From: Candidatus Poribacteria bacterium
GTDB lineage: Bacteria; Poribacteria; WGA-4E; UBA9662
Assembly: GCA_036339735.1 (NCBI GenBank)
Contig: JAYZAL010000003.1
Coordinates: 1-48,499, forward strand
Length of the DNA stretch: 48,499 nucleotides
Direction of reading: 5' to 3'
Shown here: positions 28,216-48,499 of the stretch, one piece after another
Numbering within the stretch: position 1 is the stretch's first letter
How the letters are laid out: every line of letters begins with the position of its first letter
The notes under the pieces: generated by a model
Seen by the model: only the letters and a program-made list of their open reading frames with translations
Told to the model about the DNA's origin: nothing
Database searches by the model: none
Made by a program: the position numbers and the translations under genes

Positions 28216-29301
28216 ATGCCGGTTAAGTTCAAAAAAACGCTTATTTCAGAAGAAACCTACGAAACAGCTGCAGCTTTCGACGTTGATGGTGATGGAGTTT
28301 TAGATATTGTATCTGGAGGTTGGTGGTACAAAGGTCCCAATTTTAAAGAGCGTTATAAGATATGTGATGTTATGCCGGATGGTGAATATTACGATGATTT
28401 TTCCACAATCCCTCTGGATGTTAATGGCAACGGGCGTACCGACTTTATTACAGGTGGTTGGTTTGGTTGCCATATACGTTGGGTGGAAAACCCAAGAGAC
28501 CTAAATCAAGAATGGGTCCAACATATTATTGCTGATTGTGGTAATGTTGAAACCACTAGGGCTTGGGATGTTGATGGCGATGGTCTGCTTGAAATTGTAC
28601 CGAACACCCCATCAACACCTCTGATTGTCTATAAACTGATCGTAGACACAAATGGTCAAGGACAAGGCGAATTTGTGAGACACCAAATTTATGATTCCGG
28701 CCAAGGACATGGTCTCGGCTTCGGTGATGTTACTGGTAACGGTCGTGGCGATTTTATACTCAATCATGGCTGGTTAGAATCTCCCGAAGACACCTACGGT
28801 GGAGACTGGAAGTTTCACGCTGATTTCGATCTTGGTTCGGCCAGTGTACCGATTTTGGTAGTAGACGTGAATGGAGATGGTCTCAACGATCTCATCGTTG
28901 GTCAAGCTCACCCTTATGGCTTAGACTGGTGGGAGCAACAGATTAGTTCGACTGGTAAACGAACATGGGTGAAGCATCCCATTGACCCCTATAATTCCCA
29001 ATACCATGACATCCAATGGATCGACATTGACGGTGATGGTGAATGTGAATTGGTAACTGGTAAAAGATATAGGGCGCATTGTGGTAATGATCCGGGGGCC
29101 AATGATGACCTTGGCATCTACTATTTCAAGTGGAATGGCAAATCTTTTTCAAAACAAGTAATCGACTATGGTCCAGCTGGAACTGGCTCAGGTTGTGGCA
29201 TCTATTTTCATGCTGTGGATATTAATAATAACGGTTTGATAGATATAGTTGCACCGGGGAAAGATGGACTCCACCTGTTTCAAAATTTGGGAATTACCTA
29301 A
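28216..29301 (+). CDS. FG-GAP/VCBS repeat beta-propeller protein
   Basis: About seven DxxGxGxxD repeats (DVDGDGVLD, DVNGNGRTD, DVDGDGLLE, DVTGNGRGD, DVNGDGLND, DIDGDGECE, DINNNGLID); SD GGGAGGT. Confidence 0.85.
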   Translation: MPVKFKKTLISEETYETAAAFDVDGDGVLDIVSGGWWYKGPNFKERYKICDVMPDGEYYDDFSTIPLDVNGNGRTDFITGGWFGCHIRWVENPRDLNQEWVQHIIADCGNVETTRAWDVDGDGLLEIVPNTPSTPLIVYKLIVDTNGQGQGEFVRHQIYDSGQGHGLGFGDVTGNGRGDFILNHGWLESPEDTYGGDWKFHADFDLGSASVPILVVDVNGDGLNDLIVGQAHPYGLDWWEQQISSTGKRTWVKHPIDPYNSQYHDIQWIDIDGDGECELVTGKRYRAHCGNDPGANDDLGIYYFKWNGKSFSKQVIDYGPAGTGSGCGIYFHAVDINNNGLIDIVAPGKDGLHLFQNLGIT

Positions 29302-33158: not shown

Positions 33159-34910
33159 ATGATTAAACATAGCTATTTCAATCTTTCCCGTACGTCAAAA
33201 CTATCACACACCTTCGAAAAGATAAAATTAAGCTTACTTTTAATAAAAATCGTTATTGTACCGATAGCGATCGGTCAAGAGACGCCAAATTTCTTGGATA
33301 TCACAGAACTTTCCGGTATTACTTTCAAACACAATAGCGGCTCATTTGGCCAAAAATACCTCCCGGAAACTATGGGACCAGGCTGCGCTTTTATTGACTA
33401 TAATAATGATGGAAGACAAGATATTTTGTTGGCTAACGGTAAAGATTGGCCGAATCATGAAACCAGTCGTCGACAAACTATGGCTCTTTATCGGAATGAA
33501 GGAGACCTAGATGGAAATGGTGTCCCAGAGTTTTCAGATCAAACTTCTGCGGCCAAGTTGGACGAGTCGAATTATGGCTTGGGTTTAGCGGTAGCAGACT
33601 ATGATAATGATGGAGATGATGATTTTTACTTGAGTTGTTTGGCAAACGACCGACTGTTTCAGAATCAAGGAGATGGAACATTCATTGATAAAACGGAGAC
33701 TGCAGGCATCTACAACCCTGGTTTTGGTACCAGTTGTGCTTGGTTCGACTATGATGGGAACGGTGATCTAGATCTTTTCGTTGCTAATTATGTGGATTGG
33801 TCTATCGAATCTGATCTCTTTTGTACATTGGATGGCACACATAAATCCTACTGTACACCAGAGTCGTATGATGGACAATCGAGTAGGCTATTCCGGAATC
33901 GAGGAGACGGTACCTTTTCTGACATCAGTCGAATCGCTCGTATTGAGGATCAAGTTAGTAAGTCTCTTGGTGTGTGTATATTCGATTGTAATTCTGACGG
34001 GTTACCTGATATTTTTGAAGCAAACGATACTCAACCCAACAAACTGTACCAAAATAACGGGGATGGAACATTTATCGAGCAAGGAATGATCTACGGCGTG
34101 GCCTTTAGCGAGGATGGTAAGGCTACTGGTGCAATGGGAGTTGATGCCGGCGATTATGATGGGTCAGGTCGTGAAGGTTTAGTCGTTGGGAATTTTTCAA
34201 ACGAGATGATTAATCTATACCATAATGAAGGTGGTTTTTTTATTGATGATGCGCCTGTAGCTAATGTAGGAAGTAGTAGTTTGTTGACCTTAACTTTTGG
34301 ATGTTTTTTCTTCGATTTTGATCTTGATGGTCGGCTGGATATCTTCGCTGCTAACGGTCATTTAGAGGACGAAATTAATACAGTACAAAGTGAAGTAACC
34401 TACGCTCAGCGACCACATCTATTCCGGAATACTGGTAATAGCTCCTTTCTGGATGTTGTAACTGATGCTGGTGAAGATTTACAGAAGCCAATTGTTGGCC
34501 GCGGTGCAGCTTACGGTGACATTGACAATGATGGGGATTGGGATTTGCTGGTCACGACCTGTGAAGGGCCGGCCTATTTATATCGTAACGACACCATCAT
34601 AAATACAGAGGTACTTTCTAATCGTTCGTGGATCAAGATTAAACTAGTTGGAAACCAATCCAACCGAAATGGTATTGGAGCTAAAGTTACTGTTAAAACG
34701 GCCGGGGGCCAGCAAACCAGAACACTACGTTCTGGTGCAAGCTACTGTTCGCAGAGTGAGTTGTCAATTATATTTGGGTTAGGGACGAGTAAAACGATAG
34801 AGCAACTAACAGTGGATTGGCCACTATCAGTGGCAAACAAAAAACGTCATCAGACTCTATTAAGTAATATTAAGGTCAATCAACATCTAACGATTCGAGA
34901 AAGTAATTAA
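33159..34910 (+). CDS. CRTAC1 family protein (FG-GAP repeats plus ASPIC/UnbV domain)
   Basis: Multiple DYDNDGxxD repeats, RGAAYGDIDNDGDWDL, SNRNGIGAKV, SYCSQ, FGLG, VDWP. Confidence 0.9.
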   Translation: MIKHSYFNLSRTSKLSHTFEKIKLSLLLIKIVIVPIAIGQETPNFLDITELSGITFKHNSGSFGQKYLPETMGPGCAFIDYNNDGRQDILLANGKDWPNHETSRRQTMALYRNEGDLDGNGVPEFSDQTSAAKLDESNYGLGLAVADYDNDGDDDFYLSCLANDRLFQNQGDGTFIDKTETAGIYNPGFGTSCAWFDYDGNGDLDLFVANYVDWSIESDLFCTLDGTHKSYCTPESYDGQSSRLFRNRGDGTFSDISRIARIEDQVSKSLGVCIFDCNSDGLPDIFEANDTQPNKLYQNNGDGTFIEQGMIYGVAFSEDGKATGAMGVDAGDYDGSGREGLVVGNFSNEMINLYHNEGGFFIDDAPVANVGSSSLLTLTFGCFFFDFDLDGRLDIFAANGHLEDEINTVQSEVTYAQRPHLFRNTGNSSFLDVVTDAGEDLQKPIVGRGAAYGDIDNDGDWDLLVTTCEGPAYLYRNDTIINTEVLSNRSWIKIKLVGNQSNRNGIGAKVTVKTAGGQQTRTLRSGASYCSQSELSIIFGLGTSKTIEQLTVDWPLSVANKKRHQTLLSNIKVNQHLTIRESN

Positions 34911-40580: not shown

Positions 40581-43500
40581 TTGATCGTTATTCTTAGTTA
40601 CTTCGGTCGTTTTTCTGACATTCTCGTTGATAAACGATTTTTGCTTCACTCTTTTATTTTAGGCTTTTTCGTTCTTTCCTTGGCCTGGGGCGGAGTTATA
40701 ACCAAGGACGCCGCACTAACACAAGCGTATGAGAAAGTTGTCACCGGTAATTCTTCTCCTCCTTCTACCTTCAATTCCAAAGATAATTCGAAACGAATCT
40801 TTCTAGAAAAACCAAAAACTTTACAGCCTTGGCTACATTCACCAACTCATCTAAAATCTCACGCATTGAAAGATGAATTGGAACCACCACACTATATTAG
40901 GCAGTATCTTTACTCTTTGAATCGATGGAAACGTGTTCCCCAGTTTGTAGACCTCAGTGAATTATGGGAATACGACCCCAATCAAGTAGACAGTGAAGTC
41001 GATCAAGACGGGTTTGACCTTCCTCTCAACTCAAATCTAAAAATTACTGGTCATAAATCTGTTACGGTTGAACTCAATAAGACACATTACTTCGGCCAAA
41101 CTGATCGCTATAGCTTTTACGGTATGAATAGTGGGTATAGTAGCTCATATAATTCTGGCCTCGATTTAGGATTGAACTCATCTTATGGGGATTCTTATTC
41201 TAGCTATGGTAACTATGGTGGTGGATATGATTCTTTTAGCGGAGGTGGTTTCGGTGGTAGTAGTTATGGTGGATATGGAAGTGGCTTTTCAATGTCTCGC
41301 GGTGGCGCACCTAGAGCTAGTGGTATTAACATTCGTCAGACCCTACAAGTTGGATTACACGGGAGAGTCGGTGAACATACTCACGTAGAAGTCGATTATA
41401 GTGATTCAGGAGGTGACTCATACGGAGGGAGTAGTTATGGCGGCTACAGTGGTGGTGTTGGTGGAGCTAAACAGCAAAAGATCCGAGTCTGGTATGAAGG
41501 GAAACCTGAAGGTATCCTGAGACGAGTCGCCTTTGGCGATATTATGCTTAATTTACCAAATACACGTTTTCTAGATATTAACCGCAATTTATTTGGTTTG
41601 GAAGCTATTGCAGAGTATAAAGGCGCCAAATTAACAGCCTTTGGTTCACGTTCTAAAGGCATAACAGACCGGCGAAGATTCAGAGGTGAATCTCGCCGTG
41701 CCGGTTATGGTAGGGGACAACAGGTAGCCGACCATAATTACGTCAAAGAGCGGTTTTATTTTATTCAGCTAGGTGAAGATGGGTTACTTCATGATTCGTA
41801 TTTACCTATCAAAAAAGGTAGCGAGCAAATCTATATTGATGATGGAGTTGCTAATAACAATCAGGGCGGACAGAGAACAGTAAATGGTTATTTCAATCTA
41901 CAGTACCCAGGCCAGGACTACAATATTGACTATGAAACGGGAGAGATTGAATTTCTTATTTCGATGTCTCCTAGTTATAAGATTGTGGCAGCATATGAAT
42001 ATCTTGGAGACGGAACTGGCGTTGTTGGTTCACCTAAGAATGTTTTTGTTAATGAAAATGATGACACTCCTACCACTGGAGAAAGTCAACAGAAAGGATA
42101 TGTAACTCTAAAAGACAAAGCCATTCGAGGTACTGAGTCTCGGCGCGTGTATAACCTGGGAAACAGAAATATTAATCCGAGAGATTTCCAGCTGACCATT
42201 TGGCGCCAAGGTGCAGGTGAGGCATTCGAGACAAAACAAGGAGAGATCCCTTATGTTCAAATCTTTGGTCTAGATAAAGATGGGGATGGCAGAGTCGAGC
42301 CAGAGTATGTCGATTTTGATCGTGGTATTCTAACATTTCCAACTTTCCGCCCATTTATGATTGAAGATCCAGAAAGCCCTTTCTATCAGTATAGAGATCA
42401 ACTTAACAATGAAGCTATTTACGCTGAGAACACACGTTATGGTGATCAACTTTACACTATTCAAGCTGACTACGCATACCAGTCTAATAGCCACAACGTA
42501 GGTTTGTTTGTTATTCCTAAAAGTGAAACTGTCCGATTAAATGGCCGAAAGCTACAAAGAGATATTGATTATATGATGATCTACGAAGTGGGAACACTTC
42601 GCCTAATGAACATTCAACTAGATGAATATGATGAAATTGAAGTCGAGTTCGAGCGTGCACCTTTCGGTGGTTCATTACAACAGACTGTAGCGGGGGTTTG
42701 GCTAGAATATCAGTATCAACCAAAAGAAAAAAAATCTACTGATGTAAACACTTCTACCAAAAAATTTAATCGTTTTGATCGATTGATGGGACGGACTAGT
42801 CAAACTACAGGCACTTTTTCTAAACCTAATTCTACAATAGGAACGACATTTGGCTCAGGTCAAATGGGGAGAGGATTTGGTGGGAACCGGTTTGGCAGCG
42901 GTTCTTTTGGCTTTGGTGGATCTTCGGGGTTTGGTGGTGGATTTTCCTCTTCAAGTTTCGGAATGGGTGGTCGTTCAAGGCGTGGTATGTATGGTACAGG
43001 GGGACGAACTCATTTTAATCCTGTTTTTAAACAAGGATTGAATTTTTCAACTGGTTACATTATTAATACGGGACAAAAACCAGTTGAGGTCCCCAACCCA
43101 AATGAAGTTCCCAGCCGTTTGCAAGCTTTTAATTTAAATACTAGTTTTGGCCAACAATTCAATTTAGCGTGGCTAGTTAACCCTATACCTTTTGTTTTTG
43201 TAGATGAATTTCCATTGATCTTCAATTTTAGTGGTGAGGCGGCATTCTCACACAATAACCCTAACAGTGTGGGTCTATCCATGGTTGACGGTATGGAAGG
43301 AGCCAGAGAAACGACTGCTATTTCAACTTTCAAGCATAACTGGAGTATGGCAAGTATCCCTTATAGTCAAGATGGAATTTCTGGTCAACAGCTAATTCCA
43401 CCGACTGTAGAAAATAGAGCCGTCTTTCGTAAACTAGTTAGCGATGAAAAGGATGAAAAGGCTATCGGTAACTACATGAGAAACAAGCGTCTTCCTGCCT

Positions 43501-46500
43501 CAATTATTAATCCGATGGCACGTTCAACTGAAGAAATACTAATCATGGAAGTTGGTTATGATTTCAGTGATGTTATTGAGGAATGGGGTGGATTTTCCTA
43601 TGGCATCTCTTCTGCTGGTGCTGATTTTTCTCAGCGCCAATTTTTGGAAATGTGGCTTCGTACTCGTGGTGATGATGATGTTATTTTACATATCGATATT
43701 GGTGTCGTTGCTGAGGACGCCGACCAAGATATGCGTCTGGATAGTGAAGATTTACCTAAACGACTAGATGATAATAATGGAGACGGCAAAATTGATGCTC
43801 TCGATTTAGATCTAGAAAATCTACCTCTTGAACACAAGTACCGAGCTAATGGTACATTAGATACTGGTGAAGATACTGGTTGGGATTATAATCCGCAAAG
43901 TGGTTTCCGGTCAGCTCTTCGTCTCGGAGATAACAATAAAGCCTTAGATACTGAGGATCTCAACGGAGACGGTGTCCTAGATGATATTAATGCTTACCTG
44001 GAGATTTCTATACCTTTGGATCAAATTCCTGATCAATGGATTAAACGTAAACGAAGTAATGGTTGGAAGTTTATTAGTATTCCCCTAACAGTTGCTGCAC
44101 CCCATGGGGATCGAGTTCCTAATTTGGGCTATGTACAACATATACGATTTTGGTTACAGAAGAACCAACCGGGTTCCGTGAATGGACAACTTCAATGGTC
44201 TTCAATTGAGCTTGTTGGTAACCAATGGGAACAAGGCATTGTTACTCAAAATGGCTCACCAGTAAGCGATACTAATGAAAAGTTCGTAATTTCTACAAAG
44301 GATAATTATAACTTTGATGATTATCAAGGTGCTTATGATCAACTCAAGGATGGCAAATTGTTTCGTAAACTTCATCCTTACACGAACGTGAACTTTTCAT
44401 TTGATTCATCACATCAAAAAGAGCAATCACTGGTACTCAACTATAATCTCTTACCTGACTCATTTGGTATTACCTCTAAACGACTGCGTGGACGCCAGCA
44501 AGGAGAAGGACAAGATTTTTCTAAGCATAATAAACTCAATTTTTGGTTATACGGTGATAAAAGCCAGGCGACTTTCGTTATGCGGTTAGCTTCAACTGGT
44601 ATTAGATCTAGTTATCGATCTTCTTACTACTATTCTTCGAATGACCCTTTCTCTGATCCACTTAAAGACACCAAAGATGAAGTAAACGTATTTGAAAATT
44701 TAACTGATTATTACGAATTTACTCTTCCTATAGATTTTGAAGGATGGAAATTAGTTGAAATCAGTTTAACAGATGAGCAGAAAAATGAAACGGAAAGCAA
44801 AATTGAATCGAAGCCCTCACCAACTCAAATAGAAGAAGCAAATGACCAAGAAGACCTGAAAGAATCAAGCACAAAAACATCTCAGCCCGATGGTCACCCA
44901 GATAGTTTCAAACTCCGGGGGCAAAATAGTAATAATTTATCGATAAAAAACATTGGAGGTGTTTTATTAGGCTTAAAGAATGATGGTCAAAATGAGATTA
45001 GTGGCGAAGTTTGGGTTAACGATATCCATTTGAGTGATCCGTTGGTCAAATCAGGATGGGCGAGACGTGGAAATTTGTCAATTGAGTTGGGGCGTATACT
45101 CAAAATTCAAGGTGGTTTTGCTGGACAAGATAAGGATTTCGAGAGTTCTGCTGGTCAAACAAGCAGGCAAAGTATGTATGATCGTGGCTATAGTACCACT
45201 AATAATGATTACAATCTTAACAGTGATATTACTTTGCTGAGTTGGTTACCCATTCGATATTCGATTAGCCATCAGGAGACTGAAACAGAAAATCGGAGGG
45301 GTTCAATTAGTTCATATCAAAGTGGGAAAAGTGAAACCCTAAATCGTGATATTTCGATACAGTTCAGCCGTCCAAAATGGCCGATGTTGGGCTTTGCTTA
45401 TAATAAGCAAGATTTTTGGAATGAACGTCAAGGTTCACAATTAAGTGATCTTTATACAGGAACTTTCCGTTACAGTATTGGACAACGTATTGGATTAGAT
45501 GTTCAGTACCGGCATGAAGATGTCGACTCCGATACATCCACTGCGAACTCAACAAACACTAGTCGCTCTAGTTATGGTGGATATTATGGGTATAATCAAG
45601 ATGAAAAAGTAGATACAGGTTCAGTTTCTTTCAATCTACAACCCTTCGATAGCCTTAGTCTCAACACGCGTTACGATATCAGGAGAGAATTAGAAAAAAA
45701 AGGAAGCAGACAATCTTCTAGGTCTTATAATTCTTACGGAACTTATTCATCATACGCTAATCAATCGATTAGCAACCCGACAGAGCAAGAAACCGAATCA
45801 AAAGCAGATAGTGAAGAAATTTATACATTAGCAGCTAGGGAACACCGATTTTCAATTAATCCTCGTATCAATAGGGACTTACTTGGTTTACGACCAACAA
45901 TTACCAACCAAGTTAGTTTTAGTGAGAATTGGTTCGGTGAGTCGAAAGACGCATCAATCAATGCTAACATTCGTTTGGGGCTTGGTATACGCCCAAAGTC
46001 TTGGTTCGGCTGGCTATTGAACCCTAAACCTAATACTAGTGAATCTAGCGAGCTATCATTATTCGAAAAAAATACAGATGAAGAACAATTTGAGGAAGAG
46101 ATTAAGCAACAAGATAGACTAAACCAACTAGAAGATATAGGAATTACCCAAGAAAGTGTTGAAAATGCTGAAAGCCTTAAAGGCGATTGGATACAAAAAG
46201 AAAAGAAAAAAATGGATCAAAAAATGGCTTTACGAAATGGCCTGGACCAAGAAAAAAGGACCGGATTATTTCAAAGAAGTCTTGAATCATTATCATTAAA
46301 TACTGATATCAGTTTCAACACTCAAGACTACCTCCGACAATTAGAATCTGGGGATTCTTTTCGTGATATTCTTGAGTTTGATGAAGGAGATAAGCGACGT
46401 TCACGAGCTAGAACTGGTACTCGATACAATTTTCGTGCTTCAGTAGATCCCTGGTCTTGGGCATCAATCAGCGGAAATTATTCACATAGTGATAGCTTTA

Positions 46501-47099
46501 TGAAGTCTTCCAGTACCTCATCTAAATCAAATACGACTAGTTATGATAGTAATCTCAAGTTATTCAATGCTAAGAATACTTCTACCTTGCAATTACGTTA
46601 TAGATATATGACGCGAGACCATAGTAATATAAATGCTAGAATTGGCGGAAGCCTCTCTCATGAACCTTCGATTAGCTGGCGCCATGCTTGGCAAGGCGGA
46701 AGTAGAACTACCATTGGTGTACGAACAACTCTCCGTGACCAAGAACGGGCTGGCATCGATAGCTTATCGTTTATAATCACACCTAGTTTCAATGTAGATT
46801 ACAAACTTAGTATTGAAAGTGGTATTCGTATTCCCTTTCGACGGAAAGTCATTAAACTAGAGCATGACCTTGATTTGAGTAATACGTTCTCAACAGTAAT
46901 TCGTCGTGAACAATTTGGTGCTAACAGAGAAGAGCGATCAGAACGTTATGAGACTACGGTACAAATGCGATATAACTTGAGCACCAAACTAACGGCTAAT
47001 TTGAATTTAGGCGTTAGTTACAATCAAGATCATGTAGAGGAAGGACGCGATTACTTGTCTATTGCCAGTTCATTAACTGTAAGAGGTGAGTTCCGGTAG
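40581..47099 (+). CDS. SprA-like (type IX secretion translocon) giant outer-membrane beta-barrel protein
   Basis: SprA-type blocks in order: LQVGLHGRVGEHTHVEVDY, KIRVWYEG...VAFGDIMLNLP...NLFGL, LQRDIDYMMIYEVG, DTEDLNGDGVLD, GEVWVNDIHL; amphipathic beta-strand C-terminal half ending LTVRGEFR. Exact start codon uncertain. Confidence 0.75.
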   Translation: MIVILSYFGRFSDILVDKRFLLHSFILGFFVLSLAWGGVITKDAALTQAYEKVVTGNSSPPSTFNSKDNSKRIFLEKPKTLQPWLHSPTHLKSHALKDELEPPHYIRQYLYSLNRWKRVPQFVDLSELWEYDPNQVDSEVDQDGFDLPLNSNLKITGHKSVTVELNKTHYFGQTDRYSFYGMNSGYSSSYNSGLDLGLNSSYGDSYSSYGNYGGGYDSFSGGGFGGSSYGGYGSGFSMSRGGAPRASGINIRQTLQVGLHGRVGEHTHVEVDYSDSGGDSYGGSSYGGYSGGVGGAKQQKIRVWYEGKPEGILRRVAFGDIMLNLPNTRFLDINRNLFGLEAIAEYKGAKLTAFGSRSKGITDRRRFRGESRRAGYGRGQQVADHNYVKERFYFIQLGEDGLLHDSYLPIKKGSEQIYIDDGVANNNQGGQRTVNGYFNLQYPGQDYNIDYETGEIEFLISMSPSYKIVAAYEYLGDGTGVVGSPKNVFVNENDDTPTTGESQQKGYVTLKDKAIRGTESRRVYNLGNRNINPRDFQLTIWRQGAGEAFETKQGEIPYVQIFGLDKDGDGRVEPEYVDFDRGILTFPTFRPFMIEDPESPFYQYRDQLNNEAIYAENTRYGDQLYTIQADYAYQSNSHNVGLFVIPKSETVRLNGRKLQRDIDYMMIYEVGTLRLMNIQLDEYDEIEVEFERAPFGGSLQQTVAGVWLEYQYQPKEKKSTDVNTSTKKFNRFDRLMGRTSQTTGTFSKPNSTIGTTFGSGQMGRGFGGNRFGSGSFGFGGSSGFGGGFSSSSFGMGGRSRRGMYGTGGRTHFNPVFKQGLNFSTGYIINTGQKPVEVPNPNEVPSRLQAFNLNTSFGQQFNLAWLVNPIPFVFVDEFPLIFNFSGEAAFSHNNPNSVGLSMVDGMEGARETTAISTFKHNWSMASIPYSQDGISGQQLIPPTVENRAVFRKLVSDEKDEKAIGNYMRNKRLPASIINPMARSTEEILIMEVGYDFSDVIEEWGGFSYGISSAGADFSQRQFLEMWLRTRGDDDVILHIDIGVVAEDADQDMRLDSEDLPKRLDDNNGDGKIDALDLDLENLPLEHKYRANGTLDTGEDTGWDYNPQSGFRSALRLGDNNKALDTEDLNGDGVLDDINAYLEISIPLDQIPDQWIKRKRSNGWKFISIPLTVAAPHGDRVPNLGYVQHIRFWLQKNQPGSVNGQLQWSSIELVGNQWEQGIVTQNGSPVSDTNEKFVISTKDNYNFDDYQGAYDQLKDGKLFRKLHPYTNVNFSFDSSHQKEQSLVLNYNLLPDSFGITSKRLRGRQQGEGQDFSKHNKLNFWLYGDKSQATFVMRLASTGIRSSYRSSYYYSSNDPFSDPLKDTKDEVNVFENLTDYYEFTLPIDFEGWKLVEISLTDEQKNETESKIESKPSPTQIEEANDQEDLKESSTKTSQPDGHPDSFKLRGQNSNNLSIKNIGGVLLGLKNDGQNEISGEVWVNDIHLSDPLVKSGWARRGNLSIELGRILKIQGGFAGQDKDFESSAGQTSRQSMYDRGYSTTNNDYNLNSDITLLSWLPIRYSISHQETETENRRGSISSYQSGKSETLNRDISIQFSRPKWPMLGFAYNKQDFWNERQGSQLSDLYTGTFRYSIGQRIGLDVQYRHEDVDSDTSTANSTNTSRSSYGGYYGYNQDEKVDTGSVSFNLQPFDSLSLNTRYDIRRELEKKGSRQSSRSYNSYGTYSSYANQSISNPTEQETESKADSEEIYTLAAREHRFSINPRINRDLLGLRPTITNQVSFSENWFGESKDASINANIRLGLGIRPKSWFGWLLNPKPNTSESSELSLFEKNTDEEQFEEEIKQQDRLNQLEDIGITQESVENAESLKGDWIQKEKKKMDQKMALRNGLDQEKRTGLFQRSLESLSLNTDISFNTQDYLRQLESGDSFRDILEFDEGDKRRSRARTGTRYNFRASVDPWSWASISGNYSHSDSFMKSSSTSSKSNTTSYDSNLKLFNAKNTSTLQLRYRYMTRDHSNINARIGGSLSHEPSISWRHAWQGGSRTTIGVRTTLRDQERAGIDSLSFIITPSFNVDYKLSIESGIRIPFRRKVIKLEHDLDLSNTFSTVIRREQFGANREERSERYETTVQMRYNLSTKLTANLNLGVSYNQDHVEEGRDYLSIASSLTVRGEFR

Positions 47100-47290: not shown

Positions 47291-47330
47291 TGACAGTCAA
47301 TCTAAACACGAATTTTCAGGCAAAAAAAAA

Positions 47331-47447
47331 CCCAGCAACGACCTACTTTCCCACGGGGTCTCCCCCGAAGTATCATCAGCGCTGAAGGGCTTAACTGCCG
47401 TGTTCGAAATGGGAACGGGTGGGACCCCTTCGCTATAGTCACTGGGT
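47331..47447 (-). rRNA. rrf: 5S rRNA
   Basis: Minus strand reads CCCAGTGACTATAGCG...CCCGTTCCCATTTCGAACACGGCAGTTAAG...GGGAAAGTAGGTCGTTGCTGGG; the ends pair; downstream of 23S. Confidence 0.96.

Positions 47448-47605: not shown

Positions 47606-48499
<894 letters not shown>

Follow-up and report, generated by a model that had tools for sequence, protein, structure and literature searches.

A conserved, predicted disordered aromatic-glycine loop in a SprA-type translocon of Poribacteria

A single open reading frame (ORF) in a window of 48,499 nucleotides from Candidatus Poribacteria bacterium (the whole stretch of DNA analyzed; contig JAYZAL010000003.1 of assembly GCA_036339735.1) very probably encodes a SprA/Sov-type translocon of a type IX-like secretion system (T9SS), a single-copy core gene of the Poribacteria. 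With the same high confidence, a cluster of Phe-Gly (FG) dipeptides in its product is considered to be the aromatic-Gly core of an insertion of ~100 residues, predicted to be disordered, between strands 8 and 9 of the barrel and placed by strand parity on the periplasmic rim of the pore. The barrel anatomy and the placement of the loop are well supported by the structural models, and a gating role for the loop, argued by analogy, is plausible. Poribacteria are a sponge-associated phylum.

The first-pass annotation of this DNA had described seven FG in about 41 residues with Gly/Ser spacers, and these were read exactly in frame +1 of the window at positions 42849-42971, where the 41 residues comprise 8 F, 18 G, 9 S and 7 FG. 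The span that had been assigned to the cluster, 42849-43004, was right for this FG core but also took in the basic tail RSRRGMYGTGG beyond its end at 42971. Both strings quoted as flanking strands coincide with predicted strands (residues 702-712 and 819-830), but the cluster does not lie directly between them, since it is the core of a 106-residue insertion, 44 residues after strand 8 and 21 residues before strand 9. When the 41 residues were shuffled 100,000 times, the mean was 3.52 FG and the probability of obtaining at least seven was 0.0087. This ORF was also the only one with at least six [FY]G in 41 residues among the 6666 stop-to-stop frames of at least 80 residues in the whole genome (1.6 million residues), and the only one of these frames with a 40-residue window in which G+S+F+Y reached at least 70%. 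The runner-up frames contained 4-5 [FY]G in 41 residues and were ordinary sequence. With such composition in one of 6666 frames, a genome-wide compositional bias was rejected. No tandem repeat was found in the DNA beneath the FG region; therefore, the region is not a recent slippage product, and DNA slippage was rejected as its origin.

Searches with the single ORF sequence yielded no family in Pfam and no match with phmmer against the PDB, these single-sequence searches being too weak to show the kinship with SprA. The sole NCBIfam match was TIGR04189 (T9SS translocon Sov/SprA), with 133 bits and an E-value of 6.7e-39, under its 200-bit equivalog cut-off and best in the region of the second cap insert. 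When a profile was built from 50 full-length family members, SprA of Flavobacterium johnsoniae (6h3i_A) was recovered with an E-value of 4.3e-92 and 312.6 bits. SprA chains were also the four best structural matches of the N-terminal AlphaFold model (Z 13.4-14.3, 580-656 residues aligned), the best being 8gl6_A (Z 14.3, root-mean-square deviation 29.8, 656 aligned) and the next 8gl8_A, 6h3j_A and 6h3i_A (Z 14.0-13.4). Identity to these chains in the structural alignment was 17-19%, and the deviation of 23-30 Å is large because the half-barrel models do not close. A FimD chain was found among the structural matches as a generic barrel only (Z 8.2). The family profile, TIGR04189 and the structural matches thus agree with the initial proposal that the host protein is a SprA-like barrel.

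A database search with the ORF protein returned ~100 orthologues of 38-96% identity, and the few carrying an organism name were all from Candidatus Poribacteria bacterium; beyond them, the same search showed a tail of 22-27% identical proteins with the Pfam domain SprA_N. The TTG start of the ORF is the same start called for orthologue P0003 (96% identical), as seen when the N-termini were compared. The SprA-like gene was found in 81 of 81 sampled Poribacteria genomes, representing 17 of 17 genera and 8 families, nearly always as one ORF of 2100-2300 residues in which the whole 441-residue loop-containing query was covered. These 81 genomes refer to the presence of the gene, and the composition of the loop itself was surveyed in 78 aligned orthologues.

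The protein was folded by AlphaFold as two halves, residues 31-1200 (mean predicted local distance difference test, pLDDT, 60.8) and residues 1003-2172 (pLDDT 72.6). The N-terminal model contains strands 2-7 (255-263, 267-275, 300-306, 313-322, 336-346 and 349-357) and strands 8-11 (702-712, 819-830, 846-861 and 878-891), and the C-terminal model contains 25 long strands (12-36) from residue 1494 to the C-terminus. Strand 1 must precede residue 255 and was not confidently modelled; counting it, the total is 36. Passages of PMC9127263 describe SprA with 36 strands and place its cap inserts, found between strands 7 and 8 and between strands 11 and 12, at the extracellular face, and the 24-25 loop of F. 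johnsoniae SprA is given in excerpts of PMC10994853 as the site of protease clipping. The predicted architecture of 36 strands, in which strands 7 and 11 are each followed by an insert and strands 24 and 25 are joined by a long loop, matches this published topology, as put together from two half-length models in which strand 1 is not confidently seen.

With this topology, strand 8 descends from the extracellular cap and, therefore, the strand 8-9 connection would be a periplasmic turn. By strand parity, this turn would be located at the periplasmic rim, the end of the pore where substrates enter and where Plug provides the seal in F. johnsoniae. The loop would thus map to the pore and not far from it, as had been supposed at the outset. 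The pLDDT of the insertion was below 50 over residues 717-816, which are predicted to be disordered, and strands 8 and 9 were predicted on either side, in line with the early description of the FG stretch as a disordered loop between two barrel strands.

The insertion was not found in more distant relatives. In the profile alignment both of its flanks meet at SprA residue 766, and SprA therefore has a tight turn at this point. TIGR04189 leaves positions 673-710 for ~140 residues of this protein, and eight of eight distant SprA_N proteins have 29-30 residues across a span that takes 94-177 residues in the poribacterial family. A larger survey of relatives went from 1.84 billion cluster representatives to 478 matches, from which the 136 distant ones of at least 1000 residues were taken. 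The 101 in which both flanks scored above 10 bits were counted, and 35 were excluded (2 without a flank match and 33 scoring 10 bits or less). The projected gap was at most 2 residues in 99 of these 101 representatives. One of the two exceptions had 21 residues that were not aromatic-Gly, and the other, with 96 residues, was itself a poribacterial-type orthologue. Among those excluded, P0105 showed an apparent gap of 118 residues with a right-flank score of 1.8 bits, and the segment was not Gly/aromatic-rich. Judging by these alignments, a tight hairpin is very probably present at strands 8-9 in every other SprA-like protein examined, save the 21-residue exception.

Within the Poribacteria, the insertion was kept in all 78 aligned orthologues (proteins of at least 1900 residues, 38-96% identity). 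Its length, from the end of strand 8 to a conserved FNPxF, was between 65 and 148 residues (median 100, n=78), with a common order: a Lys/Glu-rich start, then RFxRL and a polar stretch that varies, followed by the aromatic-Gly/Ser core and the basic G[GR]RSR. The best 40-residue fraction of G+S+F+Y ranged from 0.60 to 0.97 (median 0.85, n=78), while identity to the query was 0.42 in the core versus 0.60 in the flanks. As anticipated, therefore, close orthologues carry the loop and its Phe/Gly-rich character, with the aromatic-Gly/Ser composition kept while the sequence drifts. The further expectation that FG density would be conserved as the sequence diverges was borne out for composition but not for FG itself: the number of FG per loop varied between 0 and 8 (median 4), being at least 4 in 50 of 78 loops and at most 1 in 10 of 78, and Tyr takes the place of Phe in these ten and in the more distant orthologues. 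By contrast, at least four [FY]G were present in 77 of the 78. The conserved trait is aromatic-Gly/Ser composition, not FG, and "FG" should here be read as "aromatic-Gly". Gly followed the aromatic residue in 65% of cases versus 38% Gly in the core composition, and the aromatic residues were spaced at a median of 3 residues (linker median 2-3, mean 2.5-3.4). The cores had a median charged fraction of 0.09 and an overall content of 0.38 G and 0.22 S, so that together with the pLDDT below 50 the context is a low-charge, Gly/Ser-rich stretch of predicted disorder. The family median is 10 aromatic residues per 8-9 loop (8 here), with one such loop per pore, and F/(F+Y) of this loop spans 0 to 1 across orthologues. 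Gly insertions and deletions separate the close orthologues P0002 and P0003.

Related loops were found elsewhere in the protein. The pLDDT was below 50 over residues 157-257 around LC1 and over residues 273-298 around LC2, and the low-complexity core of LC1 comprises 39-86 residues with 9-23 aromatics in the 78 orthologues, at a site where SprA-like relatives have ordinary sequence. The Ser/Tyr/Gly patch of the strand 19-20 loop is kept in orthologues as well. LC1, LC2 and this patch are all on the outer, capped side by strand parity. A periplasmic position of LC1 and LC2 was considered and rejected, as the strand at fragment 331-338 belongs to the immunoglobulin-like insert domain (structural matches span 331-662). 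The three main cores together contain 19-41 aromatics per protein (median 30). The median F/(F+Y) was 0.54 in the 8-9 loop (1.0 here) versus 0.21 in L1 and 0.18 in L2, an asymmetry between a Phe-rich periplasmic loop and Tyr-rich outer loops.

The resemblance to SprA/Sov proteins (F. johnsoniae PDB 6H3I, 6H3J, 8GL6 and 8GL8; Porphyromonas gingivalis Sov) extends to profile homology, fold, inferred topology and T9SS genome context. The poribacterial protein differs in having aromatic-Gly/Ser loops, predicted to be disordered, at L1, L2 and 8-9, sites at which the sequence of SprA is ordinary or forms a tight turn, as well as in its 17-19% identity, its score under the TIGR04189 cut-off and its host outside the Bacteroidota.

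The loop had originally been called a nucleoporin-like FG repeat, a label that had to be abandoned. Repeated FG in a low-charge, Gly/Ser-rich disordered stretch at a wide pore is indeed shared with nucleoporins. By contrast, there are only 7 FG in a core of ~41 residues (family median 4), the linkers are of ~3 residues where nucleoporins have many FG in a long domain with longer spacers, and some family members have Tyr in place of Phe. Nothing in the poribacterial protein points to a meshwork of many copies or to receptors for transport, and the similarity is convergent at most. The spacing is instead the pattern of the Tyr-Gly (YG) domain of the peroxisomal protein PEX13. In passages of PMC9795577, the aromatics of this domain are described as ~4 apart, its linkers as Gly/Ser and the whole as uncharged, with Phe in some lineages and tolerance of Tyr-to-Phe replacement; the domain is said there to form a selective phase for folded cargo, and nucleoporin FG linkers to be longer than YG linkers. 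Measured against these published features, the 8-9 loop has aromatics ~3-4 apart, Gly/Ser linkers of median 2-3, few charges (charged fraction 0.09), a Tyr/Phe swap by lineage (F/(F+Y) 0-1), variable number and position of aromatics, and a location at a conduit for folded proteins. PEX13 differs in its layout, an N-terminal domain followed by an amphipathic and a transmembrane helix in an oligomeric, many-copy meshwork, whereas here the segment is a loop between β-strands of a single barrel, one copy each, with no adjacent helix predicted. In composition, the loop is closer to the YG domain of PEX13 than to the FG repeats of nucleoporins, as a likeness of material and not of membership or homology.

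Other elements of a T9SS were also found in the genome of the window (4.32 Mb, 107 contigs, 92% complete). The T9SS C-terminal sorting domain was detected over cut-off in 42 ORFs; some of these domains end very long frames (C94:3747-3977, C53:49181-49420 and C16:64425-64685, in frames of up to 7432, 4738 and 4207 residues). Two PorV/PorQ-family proteins scored 165 and 187 bits versus the 90-bit cut-off of NF033709, under the PorV and PorQ equivalog cut-offs, and two PorU-like ORFs scored 281+116 and 273+75 bits, below the 420-bit cut-off. The SprA-like gene thus co-occurs with T9SS cargo, PorV carrier and PorU sortase candidates in the same genome. The PorU-like ORFs are of ~2060-2080 residues, nearly twice the model length. 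A 279-residue tetratricopeptide repeat (TPR) protein (L006:551-1390, genome contig C67) lies directly upstream of one PorV/PorQ-family gene with a 4-base overlap, and shows faint matches to the PorW/SprE and PorE models (17.6 and 18.4 bits) amid many generic TPR matches.

No GldL, GldM, GldK or PorW/SprE was found over cut-offs in this 92% complete genome, in a search in which these genes appeared in no control genome and which did not include GldN. TIGR03513, TIGR03517 and PF12081 gave no match in the genome, likewise with no positive control genome. TIGR03525 (GldK) gave only sub-cut-off matches, at 61 places and to the second half of the model (positions ~210-407), which were read as probable sulfatase-maturase-like domains and not GldK. 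NF052312 (PorW/SprE) gave weak matches only, of at most 43 bits, which were read as generic repeats and occurred likewise in 12 of 14 control genomes.

The T9SS is regarded as a system of the Bacteroidota and close relatives, and these results make its translocon a core gene of another phylum. No literature linking Poribacteria to the T9SS or SprA was found, the full-text matches (which do not cover supplements) being incidental co-mentions only. Among outer-membrane barrels made of a single chain, SprA has been described as the largest known. A pore of this width poses the problem of how it can be kept tight, and a separate Plug does the sealing in F. johnsoniae. The poribacterial family places conserved aromatic-Gly loops, predicted to be disordered, on the barrel itself, in a genome with no motor, ring or PorW/SprE over cut-offs. 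Should these loops gate the pore or line it, bacteria would have arrived at the kind of material that nuclear pores and peroxisomes use to move folded proteins; should they not gate it, they would still show the docking site of periplasmic partners in a divergent T9SS.

The reading that we tentatively favor, at less than even chances, is that the 8-9 loop forms a flexible, self-cohesive aromatic-Gly/Ser curtain at the periplasmic mouth, a soft plug built into the barrel. In the idle pore, the tethered loop would loosely occlude the very wide periplasmic mouth, and incoming folded cargo would push it aside or bind it weakly. The loop would then take over, in cis, the task that falls to a separate protein, Plug, in F. 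johnsoniae, and the Tyr-rich L1 and L2 loops might add filling from the capped outer end. The likeness to the YG domain of PEX13 and to the FG domains of nucleoporins would be one of convergent material, not homology. The SprA pore is reportedly ~70 Å wide, a figure from the 2018 structure paper; a loop of ~10 kDa in a mouth of this width and 40-50 Å deep would give ~100 mg/ml, a substantial filling, by a rough estimate that is arithmetic and not evidence.

Two known sealing elements can be compared with such a gate. Usher pores (PapC/FimD) have, inserted between two strands of the barrel at its periplasmic side, a folded β-sandwich plug that occupies the lumen and swings out of it. The poribacterial loop would share with it a gating element within the barrel chain between two strands, but has neither its fold nor homology to it. 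The T9SS Plug (Fjoh_1759 / PGN_0144), which seals the periplasmic end of F. johnsoniae SprA according to parts of PMC10994853 and PMC9127263, is a separate folded protein, while the loop is part of the barrel chain and predicted to be disordered. A stronger version of the model, which we consider quite improbable, is that the pore would be filled by a cohesive aromatic-Gly phase into which cargo or carrier would partition; the phase would come from the pore's own loops, Phe-rich at the mouth and, beneath the cap, Tyr-rich in L1, L2 and 19-20. This would be a third case, bacterial and of independent origin, beside the nuclear pore and PEX13, and it might take the place of Plug and of some of the motor-driven gating that is missing.

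Several observations weigh against a soft gate. Nuclear pores use far more FG motifs than one such loop, and a single loop per pore with the number of aromatics given above is far below nuclear-pore multivalency. For yeast PEX13, excerpts of PMC9795577 state a need for at least 11 Tyr per copy and for many copies. Low pLDDT can stem from genuine disorder but also from low-complexity columns that align badly, and strand parity, which places the predicted loop at the rim, does not fix its direction, into the mouth or away from it. The other aromatic-Gly loops would be on the opposite, outer side by parity, and therefore no single obvious cluster of loops would be formed. The conserved RFxRL (59 of 78 orthologues) and G[GR]RSR (54 of 78), together with a net positive charge of the loop, look more like specific binding than like a generic phase. 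Finally, F. johnsoniae lacking Plug is described in a portion of PMC9127263 as having no secretion or gliding defect, so that a gate need not be strongly selected.

Some of these same observations fit a docking tether, the main rival explanation, which we regard as possible and somewhat doubtful. In this view, the loop would use its motifs and sticky core to hold on to a partner, as a flexible arm of the periplasmic rim, and would not close the pore; the partner could be peptidoglycan, the C-terminal domains of cargo, a chaperone or some periplasmic part of the T9SS. The loop would stand in for the SprE/PorW, SkpA and Hub contacts of the Bacteroidota. The two linear motifs are conserved within an otherwise drifting loop, as would be expected of such an arm. 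According to parts of PMC10994853, SprE and SkpA dock at the periplasmic rim and the N-terminus of F. johnsoniae SprA, that is, on the same face. With no GldL, GldM, GldK or PorW/SprE over cut-offs, the periplasmic contacts of this system may be organized differently, and both the helical insert of strands 24-25, a second lineage-specific periplasmic insert, and the N-terminal LysM domains of some orthologues, which point to selection for periplasmic anchoring, are in keeping with docking. By contrast, it is composition rather than sequence that is kept over most of the loop, which is unusual for a simple binding site, and periplasmic docking would leave the like composition of the outer-side loops unexplained.

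It is unlikely that the loop has no specific role in transport, being a tolerated low-complexity expansion, an entropic spacer or an aid to the folding or insertion of the 36-strand barrel. Such an origin would account for a loop length that varies more than twofold (65-148 residues), for an FG count of 0-8, for the Gly insertions and deletions between P0002 and P0003, for the recurrence of similar segments in this protein at several loops that are unrelated to one another and for the lack of structure given by AlphaFold to the aromatic-Gly segments. It does not sit well with the fact that all 78 orthologues, with identities as low as 38%, retain the insertion, in a gene found in 81 of 81 genomes and 8 families. 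Moreover, no DNA repeat drives the loop, its composition is unique to this protein within the genome, the [FY]G order preference and the ~3-residue spacing are maintained, and the Phe share is specific to the loop (0.54 in 8-9 versus 0.21 and 0.18 in L1 and L2).

It is highly improbable that the insertion hides a structured segment, such as a folded plug or additional β-hairpins that line the barrel wall or lengthen it, that AlphaFold missed through poor low-complexity alignment: barrel strands commonly contain Gly and aromatics, SGLDLGL, which is conserved in LC1, aligns with a strand-like stretch of SprA and the mean pLDDT of the N-terminal model is just 60.8, but the core is ~60% G+S with runs such as GGG and SSSS, its length and register vary freely among orthologues, and the 36 strands are already complete without it.

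The coordinates of the gene and of its features are collected in Table 1.

Table 1. Features of the SprA-like gene and its product, with positions in the window.
Feature	Position	Strand	Basis
SprA/Sov-type T9SS translocon gene	40581..47099	+	single open frame, 2172 residues, TTG start
Gly/Ser/Tyr-rich loop LC1, residues 181-245	41121..41315	+	before strand 2 (L1), outer side by parity; composition
Gly/Ser/Tyr-rich loop LC2, residues 276-299	41406..41477	+	strand 3-4 connection (L2), outer side by parity; composition
Folded cap insert 1, residues 358-701	41652..42683	+	between strands 7 and 8; AlphaFold pLDDT 70-92; aligns to SprA up to residue 766
Barrel strand 8, residues 702-712	42684..42716	+	AlphaFold strand (fragment 672-682); conserved in all orthologues
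Lineage-specific insertion, predicted disordered, residues 713-818 (106 residues)	42717..43034	+	strand 8-9 periplasmic turn; pLDDT <50 over residues 717-816
RFxRL motif, residues 731-735	42771..42785	+	inside the insertion; regular expression RF.RL in 59/78 orthologues
FG core, residues 757-797	42849..42971	+	7 FG and 8 Phe; Tyr and acidic residues absent
Basic motif GGRSRRG, residues 796-802	42966..42986	+	closes the low-complexity core; regular expression G[GR]RSR in 54/78 orthologues
Barrel strand 9, residues 819-830	43035..43070	+	AlphaFold strand (fragment 789-800); aligns to SprA from residue 766
Folded cap insert 2, residues 892-1493	43254..45059	+	between strands 11 and 12; AlphaFold models
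Short Ser/Tyr/Gly patch, residues 1652-1674	45534..45602	+	strand 19-20 loop, outer side by parity; pLDDT <50 (fragment 656-669)
Helical insert of ~100 residues, residues 1804-1904	45990..46292	+	strands 24-25, periplasmic side by parity; five predicted helices (fragment 804-901)

The helical insert of strands 24-25 is rich in Glu, Lys and Gln, and is the second lineage-specific feature on the periplasmic side. The N-terminal LysM domain (PF01476), which is peptidoglycan-binding, was seen in precomputed Pfam assignments of a subclade of the poribacterial SprA-like orthologues (P0079-P0094), and its position fits a periplasmic N-terminus.

The neighbors of the SprA-like gene in the window are metabolic genes and, therefore, there is no T9SS operon at this locus. 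Just downstream of the gene are a 5S ribosomal RNA (rRNA) at 47330-47446 (-) and the 3' end of a 23S rRNA at 47606-48499 (-), so that the end of the contig falls within an rRNA operon. Upstream, FG-GAP repeat proteins are encoded at 28216-29301 and 33159-34910, one of them with an ASPIC/UnbV domain, amid transporter, PhyH dioxygenase and hydrolase genes; despite the "FG" in their name, they appear to be unrelated to the FG loop.

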